Below are positions 1 through 4,591 of a stretch of 4,591 bases of DNA, one piece after another; positions within the stretch are counted from its first letter, which is position 1; the number at the start of each line of letters is the position of its first letter. Below the pieces are notes generated by a model. That model saw only the letters and a list, made by a program, of their open reading frames with translations, ran no database searches and was not told the origin of the DNA. Origin of the DNA: a virus (lineage: Duplodnaviria > Heunggongvirae > Uroviricota > Caudoviricetes); IMG/VR virus record IMGVR_UViG_2734482569_000010; one strand, written 5' to 3'. The position numbers and the translations under genes are program-made.

Positions 1-41
1 GCTTTGAACTCTTTAGAGTAACGTTGGGTTTTTCTGCTCAT
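1..41 (-). CDS. IS3-family transposase OrfA, N-terminal 14 codons only (continues beyond window start)
   Basis: Start ATG at 41-39 on the - strand, AGGAG 6 nt upstream; translation MSRKTQRYSKEFKA. All three + frames have stops within 1-60, so this stretch is not + coding. Confidence 0.55.
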   Translation of the reverse strand, partial: MSRKTQRYSKEFK

Positions 42-105
42 TATTAGCTCCTTCTGATGCCATTCTATTTCAGGAAGGAGTGTCCGTTAAACTCAGGCTA
101 CCTCA
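1..105 (-). mobile_element. Terminal segment of an IS3-family insertion sequence (IS600-like), truncated by the window edge; inferred IS terminus near 103-105
   Basis: The - strand carries a Shine-Dalgarno (GAAGGAG) and an ATG at 41-39 opening an ORF that reads MSRKTQRYSKEFKA and leaves the window, which I recognise as the N-terminus of IS3-family OrfA (IS600-type). Reverse complement of 76-105 reads TGAGGTAGCCTGAGTTTAACGGACACTCC, a TGA-initiated terminal inverted-repeat-like end. The exact boundary is uncertain by about 10 bp. Confidence 0.6.
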
Positions 106-782
106 GGTTATTCGCTTCTGGGCATGGGCGGATCAACAAATGATAGACGGTAATGCAGATTGTAACGCTCGCGGCGTTACAAAAAGTGCAATAGATCGCA
201 TCACTTTTATGTCTGGTTTTGCTGATGCGTTAATTCAGGTTGGATGGCTGGTCGAAAATGACGGAGGGCTTTCTCTACCTAACTTTGAACGTCATAACGG
301 AAAAAGCTCTAAAAAAAACGGGCGGTTACAAACGAGCGAGTAACAAAAATACGCGAACTGAAACGAAAAGGTAACGCTGCCAGCGTTACACAAACGGATC
401 AAAAAGCGTTACCAGAGGAAGAGGAAGAGGAAGATCTAAATACTGATCTCCCCCTCGCCAAAAACGAGCGTCTAAAAAATTCGAGCCGGAGGCTATTGAG
501 CTGCCCGATTGGTTGCCGGAAACACTCTGGCATGAGTGGGTCCGGTTCAGACAGGCATTGCGAAAACCGATTCGAACGGAGCAGGGCGCTAACGGGGCGA
601 TACGGGAACTGGAAAAATTCCGTCAGCAGGGTTTTACACCTGAGCAGGTGATTCGACACAGCATCGCCAATGAATACCAGGGCCTGTTCGCGCCGAAAGG
701 TGTTCGGCCTGAGACGTTGCTCCGACAGGTTAACACCGTCTCGTTGCCGGACAGTGCGATCCCGCCAGGCTTCAGGGGGTAA
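106..782 (+). pseudogene. Phage replication initiator/organizer protein (Rac YdaU-like) with DnaT-like C-terminal domain; 5' end removed by the IS insertion, two apparent -1 frameshifts
   Basis: Protein-like translation is continuous only by reading frame 2 (to stop at 341-343), then frame 1 (313 to about 476), then frame 0 (to TAA 780-782). The switches coincide with an A8 run (311-318) and an A6 run (474-479). The frame-0 segment has no ATG/GTG start or Shine-Dalgarno, only TTG at 513. The C-terminus ...VNTVSLPDSAIPPGFRG matches from memory the end of E. coli primosomal protein DnaT (...NTVSEPDSQIPPGFRG). The first ~9 residues of track ORF 80-343 are IS-derived. Confidence 0.6.
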
Positions 783-788
783 CGGACC

Positions 789-1516
789 ATGAAAAATATT
801 GCGACAGGCGGCGTTCTGGAACGCATCCGCCGACTGACCCCGCCACATGTAACCGCCCCATTCAGAACGGTAGCGGAGTGGCGCGAGTGGCAACTTGCTG
901 AAGGCCAGAAACGTAGCGAGGAGATCAACCGCCTGAATCGCCAGTTGCGGGTGGAAAAAATTCTGAATCGCTCAGGCATCCAGCCGTTGCACCGTAAATG
1001 CTCGTTTGCGAATTACCAGGTGCAGAACGACGGCCAGCGATACGCGTTAAGCCAGGCGAAATCCATCGCCGATGAACTGATGACCGGGTGTACAAATTTT
1101 GCGTTCAGCGGAAAACCTGGTACCGGGAAGAATCACTTAGCGGCAGCTATCGGGAATCGCCTGCTGAAAGACGGTCAGACAGTGATTGTGGTTACCGTGG
1201 CTGATGTTATGAGCGCCCTGCNNNNNNNNNNNNNNNNNNNNNNNNNNNNNNNNNNNNNNNNNNNNNNNNNNNNNNNNNNNNNNNNNNNNNNNNNNNNNNN
1301 NNNNNNNNNNNNNNNNNNNNNNNNNNNNNNNNNNNNNNNNNNNNNNNNNNNNNNNNNNNNNNNNNNNNNNNNNNNNNNNNNNNNNNNNNNNNNNNNNNNN
1401 NNNNNNNNNNNNNNNNNNNNNNNNNNNNNNNNNNNNNNNNNNNNNNNNNNNNNNNNNNNNNNNNNNNNNNNNNNNNNNNNNNNNNNNNNNNNNNNNNNNN
1501 NNNNNNNNNNNNNNNN
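789..1516 (+). CDS. DnaC/IstB-family AAA+ replicative helicase loader (Rac YdaV-like); 3' end lies inside the N-run and is not determinable
   Basis: ATG at 789, 6 nt after the upstream TAA. Walker A motif FSGKPGTGKNHLAAAIGNRL is present, and the N-terminal region resembles prophage DnaC-like proteins. Only 789-1221 is visible. No stop occurs in any frame in 1517-1535, so the stop must lie inside the masked region. The track ORF 789-1955 is an artefact of translating N as X. Confidence 0.8.
1222..1516. other. Run of 295 N (masked or unresolved sequence) inside the DnaC-like gene
   Basis: Directly visible. The length is roughly what is needed to finish a DnaC-sized protein of about 245 aa before the next gene at 1533, suggesting length-preserving masking rather than an arbitrary gap. 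Confidence 0.95.
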
Positions 1517-1532
1517 AGTTTCAGGAGGATTT

Positions 1533-1955
1533 ATGGCGAAACCTTTTACTCCCGAACAGCGGGAAGAACTGAAGACGCGAATTGTGGAACTCGTGCATCA
1601 GGACGGTCGGGTCACGATTCGGCAGTTGTCAGATGAAACAGGTATCAGTCGTGCGTCTGTCGGTCGCTTATGCATAGAACTGGTCGCAAGTGGTGATGTA
1701 TATAATTCTGGCTACGGCTTATTCCCGTCTGAACAGGCTCGCAAGGACTGGCAAAGCGCCCGCAAAAAACTCTCGAGAGTAAAGGTGAGGAAACCGGTTG
1801 TTGTTGATCCGGACCTTATCTGGTCATTACCTGACGGAGAAATACGCCGCTACGACAGGCGCCTGAATATAATCTGTCGCGAGTGCCGGAAGAGCGAAGC
1901 TATGCAGCGTGTACTGGCTTTCTATCAGGGTAATTTTCAGGAGGCGATACTGTGA
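1533..1955 (+). CDS. ren: Lambda Ren-like protein with a winged-HTH-like N-terminal extension
   Basis: AGGAGG at 1523-1528 then ATG at 1533; 141 aa ending at TGA 1953-1955. C-terminus ...ICRECRKSEAMQRVLAFYQG resembles the lambda Ren C-terminus (...KECRQSAAMKRVLAVYG, recalled from memory). The position immediately downstream of the P-analogous DnaC-like gene matches lambda ren. The N-terminal segment TIRQLSDETGISRASVGRLCIELVASG is HTH-like. Confidence 0.7.
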   Translation: MAKPFTPEQREELKTRIVELVHQDGRVTIRQLSDETGISRASVGRLCIELVASGDVYNSGYGLFPSEQARKDWQSARKKLSRVKVRKPVVVDPDLIWSLPDGEIRRYDRRLNIICRECRKSEAMQRVLAFYQGNFQEAIL

Positions 1956-2012
1956 ATGAAATTAGCTATCAGGCTTCAATTACCGCTGGCATTCGCATCA
2001 AAGGAGAGGAGC

Positions 2013-2369
2013 ATGGAAATAAAACCAGAAGATGAGTTAAGCAATATCGTTTTATTTCCGGTAAAAGAGGATGACCCTCGTAATCAGGTTAATTTTCTTT
2101 ATGAGCCATCGGAAAGACCATATTGCCATCACGCCTCTGTACGGGTTGACGAAAAAGAGCGTCAGGTCCGCTGTAAAATCTGCGGTGCGGTTGTGGAGCC
2201 GTTTGACTGGATGCTCTCTGTGGCAAAAAGAGAAACCAGACTGGCAGATGATGTAAGGCTATTGCGCCAGGAGGAACAGGAAAGGCGGAGAAATATAGAA
2301 AAGCTGATACAGATTGAGCGTAACGCGAAAGCGCGGATACGCAGGGCGACAAAATCCAGAACTGAATAA
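2013..2369 (+). CDS. Small hypothetical phage protein with Cys-x14-Cys-x2-Cys (possible zinc-binding) and a basic, coiled-coil-like C-terminus; alternative start at 1956
   Basis: ATG at 2013 follows a strong Shine-Dalgarno (AAGGAGAGGAG, 6-nt spacing). The frame is also open from ATG 1956, which abuts the upstream stop as TGAATG with AGGAGG 11 nt upstream. Sequence includes ...PYCHHASVRVDEKERQVRCKICGAV... and an Arg/Glu-rich tail. Stop is TAA 2367-2369. Confidence 0.65.
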   Translation: MEIKPEDELSNIVLFPVKEDDPRNQVNFLYEPSERPYCHHASVRVDEKERQVRCKICGAVVEPFDWMLSVAKRETRLADDVRLLRQEEQERRRNIEKLIQIERNAKARIRRATKSRTE

Positions 2370-2516
2370 TTAAATTTAGCACTGTTAAAAATTTAATCCT
2401 TAACCGGAGGGATTTCTGCACCCTCAAATCATCAGGAGACCACCCGAAAGGGCGGGGAGCAGTCACACATCTGTTTCCGATAGCCCCGTTCTAATGCTAC
2501 ACTCTTTGATATTTTT

Positions 2517-3203
2517 ATGACCCCAATAAACATATTTATGACAGTTGCTGATTTCAAACGGCCCAAATTGGAGCTCCCAAACGGGGCAAACAAACTACTA
2601 CTGCACTCTTGCTGTGCTCCATGTTCCGGTGAGGTGATGGAGGCGCTTCAGGCCTCGGGAATCGACTACACCATCTTTTTCTACAACCCGAACATTCATC
2701 CTCAGAAAGAGTATTTAATTCGTAAGGATGAGAATATTCGCTTTGCTGAACAACACGGCGTGCCGTTTATTGATGCTGATTACGACACAGACAACTGGTT
2801 TGAACGAGCCAAAGGAATGGAATGGGAGCCCGAACGAGGGATCCGTTGCACCATGTGTTTTGACATGCGTTTTGAGCGGACAGCGCTGTACGCCGCTGAA
2901 AATGGTTTCAGTGTGATCAGCAGTTCACTGGGCATTTCACGCTGGAAAAATATGCAGCAGGTTAACGACTGTGGGCGGCGAGCCGTCGCGCATTATCCGG
3001 GCATGGTGTACTGGGATTATAACTGGCGCAAGCAGGGCGGCTCGTCCCGTATGATTGAAATCAGCAAGCGCGAAAAATTCTATCAGCAGGAATATTGTGG
3101 CTGTGTGTATTCTCTGCGCGATACCAATCTACACCGCAAATCTCAGGGACGCCCTCTTATCAAAATTGGTCAACTCCACTACGGTAAAGAAGAGAAGGAG
3201 TGA
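2517..3203 (+). CDS. queH: Epoxyqueuosine reductase QueH (DUF208 family) homolog
   Basis: 228-aa ORF with the QueH signature motifs [25 protein letters not shown] and QEYCGCVYS, with the Cys pattern expected for its metal sites. The start is ambiguous between ATG 2517 and ATG 2538; neither has a clear Shine-Dalgarno. The frame is closed upstream by TAG at 2481-2483. Confidence 0.85.
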
Positions 3204-3224
3204 TTTTATGGGGCACCTTTCTGA

Positions 3225-3254
3225 TTGATTTCATATTGGCGAGGTAAGTAGAAT
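3225..3254 (+). promoter_or_regulatory. Putative sigma70 promoter P1 (TTGATT, 18-nt spacer, TAGAAT), predicted start site near 3261
   Basis: -35 TTGATT at 3225-3230 and -10 TAGAAT at 3249-3254, about 20 nt after the queH stop and pointing into the masked locus. Sequence pattern only. Confidence 0.4.
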
Positions 3255-3272
3255 GACTGCGGGTGCTTGAGG

Positions 3273-3309
3273 CTATCTGCTTCAGGCATGAACACCAAAA
3301 GGCAGATAG
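3273..3309. repeat. Perfect 8-bp inverted repeat CTATCTGC / GCAGATAG separated by 21 nt
   Basis: 3273-3280 is the exact reverse complement of 3302-3309. It lies in the predicted 5' leader of the P1 transcript. A third direct copy, GCAGATAG, occurs at 3760-3767. Confidence 0.55.
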
Positions 3310-3354
3310 AGAAAAGCCCCAGTTAACATTACGCGTCCGGCAAGACGCTTAACA

Positions 3355-3655
3355 NNNNNNNNNNNNNNNNNNNNNNNNNNNNNNNNNNNNNNNNNNNNNN
3401 NNNNNNNNNNNNNNNNNNNNNNNNNNNNNNNNNNNNNNNNNNNNNNNNNNNNNNNNNNNNNNNNNNNNNNNNNNNNNNNNNNNNNNNNNNNNNNNNNNNN
3501 NNNNNNNNNNNNNNNNNNNNNNNNNNNNNNNNNNNNNNNNNNNNNNNNNNNNNNNNNNNNNNNNNNNNNNNNNNNNNNNNNNNNNNNNNNNNNNNNNNNN
3601 NNNNNNNNNNNNNNNNNNNNNNNNNNNNNNNNNNNNNNNNNNNNNNNNNNNNNNN
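3355..3655. other. Run of 301 N (masked or unresolved sequence) between promoter P1 and the intrinsic terminator
   Basis: Directly visible. Content is unknown; the flanks suggest a short + strand transcription unit. Confidence 0.95.
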
Positions 3656-3679
3656 CATCCTCAACGCACCCGCACTTAA

Positions 3680-3722
3680 CCCGCCCATCGCTGTGATCTC
3701 TCAGCGTTTCGGCGGGTTTTTT
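3680..3722 (+). terminator. Rho-independent terminator: two-tier GC-rich hairpin followed by a T6 tract
   Basis: Outer stem CCCGCC (3680-3685) pairs with GGCGGG (3711-3716); inner stem CGCTG (3689-3693) pairs with CAGCG (3702-3706) around an 8-nt loop. TTTTTT follows at 3717-3722, then GTTGTTT. The T-tract is on the + strand only. Confidence 0.55.
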
Positions 3723-3742
3723 GTTGTTTATTTCCGGTGAAT

Positions 3743-3851: not shown

Positions 3852-4139
3852 ATGAAAATCGAAGAATTGCGTGAAATTTTTAGTGAAAATGGCCTCTATG
3901 CTGTGCGCGTTGAGAATGGAGCGATTGTCAGCCATTGCCGCATTAGATGTTTGCAATCTCAACAAAGGAAGAGCGGTGCTGTGTTATTTTATTTTTGTAA
4001 TGGACTTCTGACGGACGGTTTTATTTTGCGTGAGGACGAATTTGTCACATCATTACGGGTTTTGAAAGAGATTGGTTTTAAGGCTGGTTTTCTGCTTTTG
4101 CTGAAGAATAAACTCATCTACAATCTTGAGCAGGATTGA
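3852..4139 (+). CDS. Hypothetical small protein (95 aa), AT-rich relative to its neighbours
   Basis: ATG at 3852 with GGAAGGA 8 nt upstream. Translation is protein-like with mixed hydrophobic and charged residues. Stop TGA at 4137-4139. No family recognised. Confidence 0.55.
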   Translation: MKIEELREIFSENGLYAVRVENGAIVSHCRIRCLQSQQRKSGAVLFYFCNGLLTDGFILREDEFVTSLRVLKEIGFKAGFLLLLKNKLIYNLEQD

Positions 4140-4177: not shown

Positions 4178-4531
4178 ATGGCACATATACAACTGGTCAA
4201 ACAAACCTCTTCCGGATTACTTCTCCCGGCGACGCCGGAGAGTTGCGATTTTCTGCATCAAATCAAAATAGGTGAGTGGATACACGCAGACTTTAAGCGT
4301 GTGTGTAACTACGCATTCCACAAGCGTTTTTTCAAACTCCTGCAACTGGGTTTCGATTACTGGACTCCGGTCGGTGGGGCGATCACGCCTCGCGAACGAA
4401 AACTGGTGTCCGGTTTCGTTGATTACCTGTGTGAATCAGTAGGCCGGGAACATACGCCAGCTCTGAGCGAAGCCGCAGAGCAATTGAGGTGTACTGGCAA
4501 TAGCGGACACTACCATTTGTTCTTTTTTTAA
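4178..4531 (+). CDS. Hypothetical phage-associated protein (117 aa)
   Basis: The track ORF begins at TTG 4136, but ATG 4178 with GGAG 7 nt upstream is the more credible start. Translation MAHIQLVKQTSSGLLLPATPESCDFLHQIKIGEWIHADFKRVCNYAFHKRFFKLLQLGFDYWTPVGG... ends at TAA 4529-4531. No confident family assignment. Confidence 0.6.
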   Translation: MAHIQLVKQTSSGLLLPATPESCDFLHQIKIGEWIHADFKRVCNYAFHKRFFKLLQLGFDYWTPVGGAITPRERKLVSGFVDYLCESVGREHTPALSEAAEQLRCTGNSGHYHLFFF

Positions 4532-4591
4532 GCAGCCATCTGATGATATTTTTCCCTGAAGGCTGCCGGGGAGATATTCCCCAGACGAGAG

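Follow-up and report, generated by a model that had tools for sequence, protein, structure and literature searches.

Why do temperate phages of Escherichia coli carry a gene for the last step of queuosine synthesis, and what could it do in a host that already performs this step? The question is raised by a stretch of 4,591 nucleotides (nt), hereafter the window, from the Caudoviricetes record IMGVR_UViG_2734482569_000010 of IMG/VR, in which an open reading frame (ORF) at 2517-3203 on the plus strand was named in a preliminary description as a homologue of the epoxyqueuosine reductase QueH. Epoxyqueuosine reductase converts epoxyqueuosine (oQ34) to queuosine (Q34) in tRNA-Asp, -Asn, -His and -Tyr, and queuosine tunes the decoding of the Asp, Asn, His and Tyr codons. 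The reading that we consider probable is that queH is a functional gene captured by phages together with a promoter of its own, and that its product backs up QueG, the resident epoxyqueuosine reductase, in the lysogen.

Identity of the queH gene

The uninterrupted 228-codon ORF at window positions 2517-3203 (+) encodes a product that matches the Pfam family PF02677 (QueH, DUF208) over profile positions 1-174 (of 175 in all), scoring 220.6 bits (cut-off 23.5; E=1.9e-65), so that the assignment to QueH is far beyond chance and the profile search proposed in the preliminary description returned a significant match over the full domain. The QueH chains of Thermotoga maritima in the Protein Data Bank (PDB) were also matched by the ORF product in a sequence search (E=5e-22). 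An AlphaFold2 model of the protein (predicted local distance difference test 77, predicted template modelling score 0.79) was compared with the PDB by Foldseek, and the best five matches were all T. maritima QueH (solved structures include 7LC5, 7LC7 and 9DEU), with a template modelling score (TM) of 0.86, a root-mean-square deviation of 2.4-2.6 Å and E-values of about 1e-11 to 1e-12; the next folds, TtuA and LarE at E of about 1e-5 and argininosuccinate synthetase, were weaker by about six orders of magnitude in E-value. We hold with high confidence that the ORF product is a bona fide QueH family member, as first proposed, and the QueH family, its reaction and the name given to the E. coli gene by the Prokaryotic Genome Annotation Pipeline (PGAP), 'epoxyqueuosine reductase QueH', are already in the databases.

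The queH coding sequence is placed at 2538-3203 (+) and comprises 221 amino acids (aa), as supported by the Pfam match, the PGAP start, the alignments and the AlphaFold2 model, with the ATG at 2517 as an in-frame alternative. The ATG at 2538 (residue M8 of the longer frame) is the more likely start, since it is the PGAP start, the ATG at 2517 is absent in E. coli A10, all 80 copies of the gene on viral contigs start there and the N-termini of the orthologues align there.

Residues of QueH, numbered from 2517, were examined in an alignment of 14 gammaproteobacterial QueH proteins with that of T. maritima, as the preliminary description had suggested, and all conserved cysteine and histidine residues were found to be retained. 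H30, C32, C33, C111, C114, C194 and C196 (six cysteines and one histidine) are invariant throughout, T. maritima included, and the N-terminal H-x-C-C-x-x-C, central C-x-x-C and C-terminal C-x-C motifs are present. C36 is a cysteine in all homologues compared except that of T. maritima, which has Asp13 instead; all proteobacterial copies have the cysteine, as do Acinetobacter and five distant homologues (31-49% identity, including the Staphylococcus aureus type), and CCAPC is the norm in Acinetobacter and in these five distant homologues. C36 as a lost catalytic residue was accordingly considered and rejected, the cysteine being the family norm and T. maritima the outlier. The PDB further holds entries for the C9S and D13N mutants of T. 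maritima QueH, which mark N-terminal positions as mechanistically important; to judge from the entry titles and from conservation, C9 and D13 would matter for the reaction and the conserved residues may serve as metal ligands.

Annotation of the family on phage genomes lags behind, as PHROG 3217, listed with 'unknown function', corresponds to the QueH profile without the first 40 residues, including CCAPC, and can now be named QueH. The queH gene of coliphage HannyBb (L003, 6001-6687) is labelled 'hypothetical protein', and a start-truncated QueH copy in an Acinetobacter record (L167, 5109-5678) is annotated as 'putative prophage protein'.

queH as a stand-alone cargo gene of lambdoid prophages

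Two stretches of the window are masked as N (1222-1516 and 3355-3655), and positions 1517-3354 share 99.8% identity with a prophage (L001) that is inserted in E. coli FDAARGOS_944 beside ybhA, in the gal-bio region. The order of this prophage runs through integrase, excisionase, Gam, RecE, CI/Cro-type regulators, YdaT, an O-like gene, the DnaC-like ydaV, DUF977, a small ORF and QueH, and continues with hokD, DUF1367 (NinB-like), DUF1364, DUF1133, four tRNA genes and the lysis, terminase, head and tail genes. queH also follows the DUF977 'Ren-like' gene in coliphage HannyBb, in O157:H7, in ST131 and in the wild-bird isolate A10, on backbones that are Rac-like or Qin-like. The gene is cargo in a variable slot of Rac/Qin-type lambdoid prophages, bounded by the replication/Ren-like genes on one side and the NinB/RusA/Q genes on the other, and its earlier placement in a lambdoid cargo slot behind the replication module and a Ren-like gene was borne out in the window, in L001 and in the four other contexts. 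The flanks were likewise correctly described, with DUF977/PHROG 142 ('Ren-like'), a DnaC-like loader and an O-like gene upstream and the NinB-like DUF1367 downstream. All three grounds on which the preliminary description might have failed (no profile match, lost catalytic residues, or a gene of the core chromosome) were thus examined, and none of them was found to apply.

A further suggestion, that queH forms a candidate uncharacterised accessory system with a masked transcription unit and two ORFs of unknown function, was not supported. Neighbours were counted over 80 queH loci on viral contigs, and DUF977 was present at 75, hokD at 65, a restriction-modification pair at 12-13, an ORF of PHROG 1621 at 14 and an ORF of PHROG 340 at 18. 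The masked unit is hokD/sok, hok/sok being a well-known type I toxin-antitoxin, and the two ORFs are those of PHROG 1621 and PHROG 340, of which the former is also found in Stx2a-converting phages that lack QueH. The suggested comparison of synteny therefore showed no conserved co-occurrence or order of queH with its neighbours (14/80, 18/80 and 65/80). What follows queH differs from one prophage to the next and can be hokD, an NgoMIV-type restriction-modification pair, a DUF1971 gene or an AIPR gene, and the homology between contexts stops 4-6 nt from the queH stop codon (HannyBb, A10); chromosomal queH orthologues have wholly different neighbours, and PADLOC returned nothing meaningful for QueH or its neighbours. 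That QueH is one component of an accessory or defence system with the masked unit and the two ORFs is favoured by the conflict-related cargo which the slot holds elsewhere (hok/sok, the NgoMIV-type restriction-modification pair, the AIPR gene), yet with a masked unit identified as hokD/sok, partners present at a minority of loci, a homology block ending at the queH stop codon, a blank PADLOC result and differently flanked chromosomal orthologues we consider it very improbable. The gene stands alone as cargo, in a slot that gathers cargo of various kinds. In O157:H7 Z1768, the slot after queH (L004, 6872-8882) holds a cytosine methyltransferase and an NgoMIV-family endonuclease.

queH DNA was detected in 995 of 5,426 complete E. 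coli genomes (~18%), at 1,014 chromosomal and 3 plasmid places, with the E. coli B and C laboratory lineages among the carriers; 985 of the copies in these genomes are near full length, and the flanking DUF977/hok DNA matches 4,433 genomes against the 995 with queH. By contrast, queG is present in 5,426 of 5,426 genomes, which makes QueH an accessory, second epoxyqueuosine reductase wherever it occurs in E. coli. The presence of QueG and QueH in one genome has been reported for S. aureus too (PMC13443448). Among 50,697 deposited phage genomes, one verified isolate with queH was found (HannyBb). Other queH records labelled as phage (Staphylococcus, Listeria and faecal contigs) are unverified and unannotated and were not accepted as phage evidence, and 'Acinetobacter phage MD-2021a' (CAKLQH020000001.1, the record L167 mentioned above, and CAKLQF020000001.1; 328-379 kb) was also set aside, as it looks bacterial chromosomal, with soxR, cynX and tadA as neighbours.

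Origin, selection and possible role of queH

QueH homologues were scanned across Proteobacteria with one genome per species, and those with 75-92% identity have lambdoid neighbours only at a locus of Escherichia albertii. The nearest homologues outside Escherichia, those of Scandinavium (92%), Kluyvera (91%) and Enterobacter (88-90%), have ordinary chromosomal genes around them, in agreement with the earlier statement that QueH is normally chromosomal, and in E. coli the gene is accessory (995/5,426). The protein of the window resembles the chromosomal QueH of Scandinavium, Kluyvera, Enterobacter, Erwinia, Providencia and Photorhabdus at 79-92% identity and differs from them in that temperate phages and prophage remnants carry it, and that its host has QueG as well.

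About 180 of the ~199 QueH-encoding viral contigs of IMG/VR are of the E. coli type. A second lambdoid lineage in IMG/VR (L180-L185), from a host other than E. coli and absent from E. coli genomes, encodes a QueH of 87-89% aa identity, and its queH occupies the same slot, from replication to RusA/Q, but on the strand opposite to the phage early genes and beside an AIPR gene. The second-lineage protein is ~93% identical to chromosomal QueH of Enterobacter against 88% to the E. coli phage type, which is in turn closest to Scandinavium. Each phage lineage is thus nearer to a chromosomal QueH than to its phage counterpart, which argues for at least two independent captures of queH. The slot beside queH in this second lineage (L182, 8827-10548) encodes a 573-aa AIPR abortive-infection protein. 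Two further mobile contexts of queH were observed (L187 and L226). The QueH of the 'viral' contig L226 is 100% identical to a genome copy of Erwinia tracheiphila (L100) and has an integrase, an IS256-type transposase and DNA methylases as neighbours; the locus may represent a third mobile context or an over-called provirus.

The DNA upstream of the phage and chromosomal copies has diverged, except for an invariant GCTAC in TGCTACA(C/A)T, located ~35-43 nt before the ATG. In the window the element reads TGCTACACT (2495-2503, +), ~35 nt upstream of the start codon, and TGCTACTAT is found upstream of queH in the L182 lineage. The pattern TGnTAnnnT occurs in the equivalent 60-nt interval of 21 of 79 loci, compared with 2.3% of control intervals, and the TGCTAC form is present in 7 of the 8 closest relatives. 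The conservation of this element across genera, in otherwise diverged DNA, suggests that queH was captured with its native promoter, and TGCTACACT is a putative extended -10 promoter of the gene. The antiparallel orientation in the second lineage points the same way, as queH would there need a promoter of its own and be transcribed independently of readthrough from the phage early genes. The 170-nt spacer upstream of queH was also considered as a structured RNA or attenuator, a reading rejected since its fold is no better than those of shuffled sequences (z=-1.06).

The ratio of nonsynonymous to synonymous divergence (dN/dS) of queH is 0.027-0.041, with dS reaching 0.44 among five divergent copies, and the 221-codon ORF is intact in 80 of 80 viral-contig copies, which comprise 17 nucleotide alleles and 4 protein alleles with two varying residues. 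These patterns indicate that queH is under strong purifying selection and that the enzyme is maintained. A neutral hitch-hiker, or a decaying remnant of a gene with no current function, might be supposed from the state of the window prophage, which is degraded (it ends in IS600 on either side, and its replication gene is frameshifted), and from the QueG that E. coli already has; with a dN/dS of ~0.03 at dS up to 0.44, with every viral-contig copy intact, with 985 genomic copies near full length and with all invariant residues kept, this is highly unlikely. The window is a decayed prophage remnant, 4.4 kb between direct IS600 copies and unable to replicate as a phage. queH, DUF977 and the hok locus survive in it, and an intact queH inside a degraded remnant fits retention of the gene at the level of the host, although it does not prove it.

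E. coli cannot make B12 de novo. QueG is among its cobamide-dependent enzymes (PMC11841063), and PMC4646009, citing Frey 1988, gives the oQ-to-Q step in E. coli and Salmonella as dependent on cobamide. QueH has been described as a non-orthologous, cobamide-independent replacement for QueG (PMC5372724, PMC6461909). The two enzymes share the reaction oQ34 to Q34 and are non-homologous, QueH being an iron-sulfur enzyme independent of cobalamin and QueG being dependent on cobalamin and [4Fe-4S] and in need of imported corrinoid, and they differ in distribution, with queG in 5,426/5,426 genomes against 995/5,426 for queH. Since every E. coli has a QueG that needs imported corrinoid, the QueH of the prophage would act as a B12-independent back-up. 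In the proposed course of events, a temperate lambdoid phage would have picked up queH as a single gene from the chromosome of a member of the Enterobacteriaceae, along with the ~50-75 nt upstream that bear the native promoter of extended -10 type, and the captured gene would have landed in the cargo slot between the replication/Ren-like and NinB/RusA/Q genes. In the lysogen, queH would be expressed from its own promoter, and on induction also by early-right readthrough where the two are co-oriented, as in the window; the prophage QueH would then serve as a lysogenic-conversion back-up which makes the last queuosine step independent of the vitamin B12 supply. Among the roles raised in the preliminary description, the cobalamin back-up is the one best supported by context, and an interplay with nucleases received no support here.

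Several observations weigh against a self-promoted back-up gene. Deletion of queG left the growth of E. coli unaltered in one assay (PMC11841063), and having oQ in place of Q is not known to affect growth in this species. A generic sigma-70 promoter scan returned nothing upstream of queH, and the promoter proposal is thus drawn from the cross-genus conservation. No Shine-Dalgarno sequence precedes the ATG at 2538, and the promoter/terminator scan detected no terminator right after the queH stop at 3203 and none up to the hok region. In the last respect queH differs from lambdoid morons, which it otherwise resembles in being a single gene with an upstream promoter-like element, variable presence and a slot shared with hok/sok, restriction-modification and abortive-infection genes; it also differs from them in its cargo, a tRNA-modification enzyme and no surface, virulence or exclusion factor.

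The position behind the replication genes could instead point to a benefit for the phage itself, where QueH, made mainly from the early-right transcript after induction or infection, would shift host tRNA from oQ to Q and thereby improve phage translation or override a host Q/oQ stress response. In the window and in most E. coli copies, queH lies shortly behind the replication genes and points the same way as the early-right operon; in a 2026 preprint, queG is the only gene of the Q pathway to be induced by phage infection in Shewanella, where Q/oQ rises and biofilm and resistance are affected; and queG frameshifts occur in phage-resistant Vibrio isolates. However, in the second lambdoid lineage queH runs opposite to the early genes, in the window it is kept intact in a remnant unable to replicate as a phage, HannyBb is the only verified isolate with queH among the deposited phage genomes, and the tRNA genes of the prophage (Ile, Arg, Thr, Gly) are not Q substrates. 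NAU/NAC usage in 40 prophage genes is, moreover, like that of host genes (fU 0.54 versus 0.53-0.62, p=0.30), and a codon-bias rationale for QueH was rejected on this basis. We regard a benefit to the phage as unlikely.

A broader version of the back-up reading, in which self-promoted queH was captured repeatedly (at least twice) because control of the oQ-to-Q step pays in phage-host conflict, with the tRNA of the lysogen locked in the Q state whatever the B12 supply, is offered tentatively and is rather unlikely. BtuB is a receptor used by phages and colicins. If the broader version is true, Q-locked tRNA in the lysogen, for example after loss of BtuB, could alter the translation of NAU-rich stress, biofilm and mutagenesis genes as well as the outcome of superinfection, and queH would be a lysogenic-conversion factor of the tRNA epitranscriptome, beyond a metabolic spare part.

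Queuosine-pathway enzymes on phage genomes are also known from the 7-deazaguanine (preQ0/archaeosine) genes, with phages that carry folE, queC/D/E and dpdA for DNA modification (PMC6884629), which might suggest that QueH acts in the modification of phage DNA and not on tRNA. Those enzymes act before or at base insertion on DNA, with DpdA, whereas here only the last, tRNA-specific step is encoded, and neither a dpdA/tgt paralogue nor preQ0-synthesis genes are annotated in the 32-kb related prophage L001. To our knowledge, epoxyqueuosine is not a known DNA base. A role in DNA modification is extremely improbable.

Literature searches found no paper on phage-borne or prophage-borne QueH, and the status of queH as a recurrent, self-contained cargo of temperate phages in ~18% of E. 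coli appears to be undescribed so far. If its product backs up QueG, about one in five sequenced E. coli would carry a phage-delivered, B12-independent bypass of the QueG step, and Q/oQ status and the phenotypes of queG mutants would be strain-dependent in a way that work on K-12 would miss. Temperate phages may in this manner shape the tRNA epitranscriptome of their hosts, and with the oQ-to-Q step described as a regulated node during phage infection in the Shewanella preprint, queH would offer an easy experimental handle.

Other features of the window

The window is bounded by two ends of IS600, an insertion sequence of the IS3 family, in the same orientation. The first, orfA-proximal, lies at 1-105 (-), is 100% identical over 105 nt to an IS600 copy (L244, 2774-2878) and replaces the 5' end of the replication-initiator gene; the second, orfB-distal and annotated as an IS600-family transposase, lies at 4483-4591 (-) and is 100% identical over 109 nt to L244 1613-1721. 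The pair brackets the queH segment like a composite transposon, with opposite ends in direct orientation. Neither IS600 junction of the window was found when the 5,426 complete E. coli genomes were searched; the bracketed unit thus shows no sign of mobility among them, the reading as a composite transposon was rejected, and the window would stem from another IS600-rich genome outside this set.

Upstream of queH, the remnant of a YdaU/O-like replication-initiator gene occupies 106-782 (+), as delimited by alignment to the intact gene of L001 and by matches to PHROG 2509, 6451 and 678 on two fragments; in comparison with L001 it has lost its 5' end to IS600, is shifted by +2 in an A-run (~311-318) and lacks 10 bp at ~449, and it is a pseudogene. 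The DnaC-like helicase loader gene of ydaV type follows at 789-1518 (+) (NCBIfam PRK12377, E=1.8e-85; PHROG 50; annotated ydaV in L001), with its C-terminal half under the mask at 1222-1516. The DUF977 or 'Ren-like exclusion protein' gene, the constant upstream neighbour of queH, lies at 1533-1955 (+) and matches PF06163 (E=1.1e-33) and PHROG 142 (E=2.7e-44). A 388-aa ORF at 789-1955 was dismissed as an artefact, in which the masked stretch fuses the ydaV-type gene with the separate DUF977 gene. The small zinc-ribbon-like phage ORF of PHROG 1621 (E=5e-56) is located at 2013-2369 (+), following the PGAP start in L001, and shows a weak TFIIB-type zinc-ribbon match and a strong Shine-Dalgarno sequence before its ATG at 2013.

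Downstream of queH, the sok family match of the hok/sok regulatory region (Rfam RF01794, 117 bits against a gathering score of 59, at L001 21745-21920) maps from L001 to 3261-3436 (+) of the window, where it is partly masked. The coding sequence of the HokD toxin, named by PGAP 'type I toxin-antitoxin system toxin HokD' at L001 21915-22070, would lie at approximately 3431-3586 (+), under the mask at 3355-3655. An intrinsic terminator with a strong hairpin and a U-run ends the hok transcript at 3678-3726 (+); it has a minimum free energy of -25.1 kcal/mol (z=-4.74, no shuffled sequence folding as well) and is the first terminator downstream of queH. A 95-aa phage ORF of PHROG 340 (E=6e-20) is present at 3852-4139 (+), and the N-terminal half of the DUF1367/NinB-like gene at 4178-4482 (+), which matches PF07105 (E=9.8e-47, profile positions 1-102 of 198) and PHROG 319, is cut by the second IS600 end, the homology to L001 stopping at 4484.

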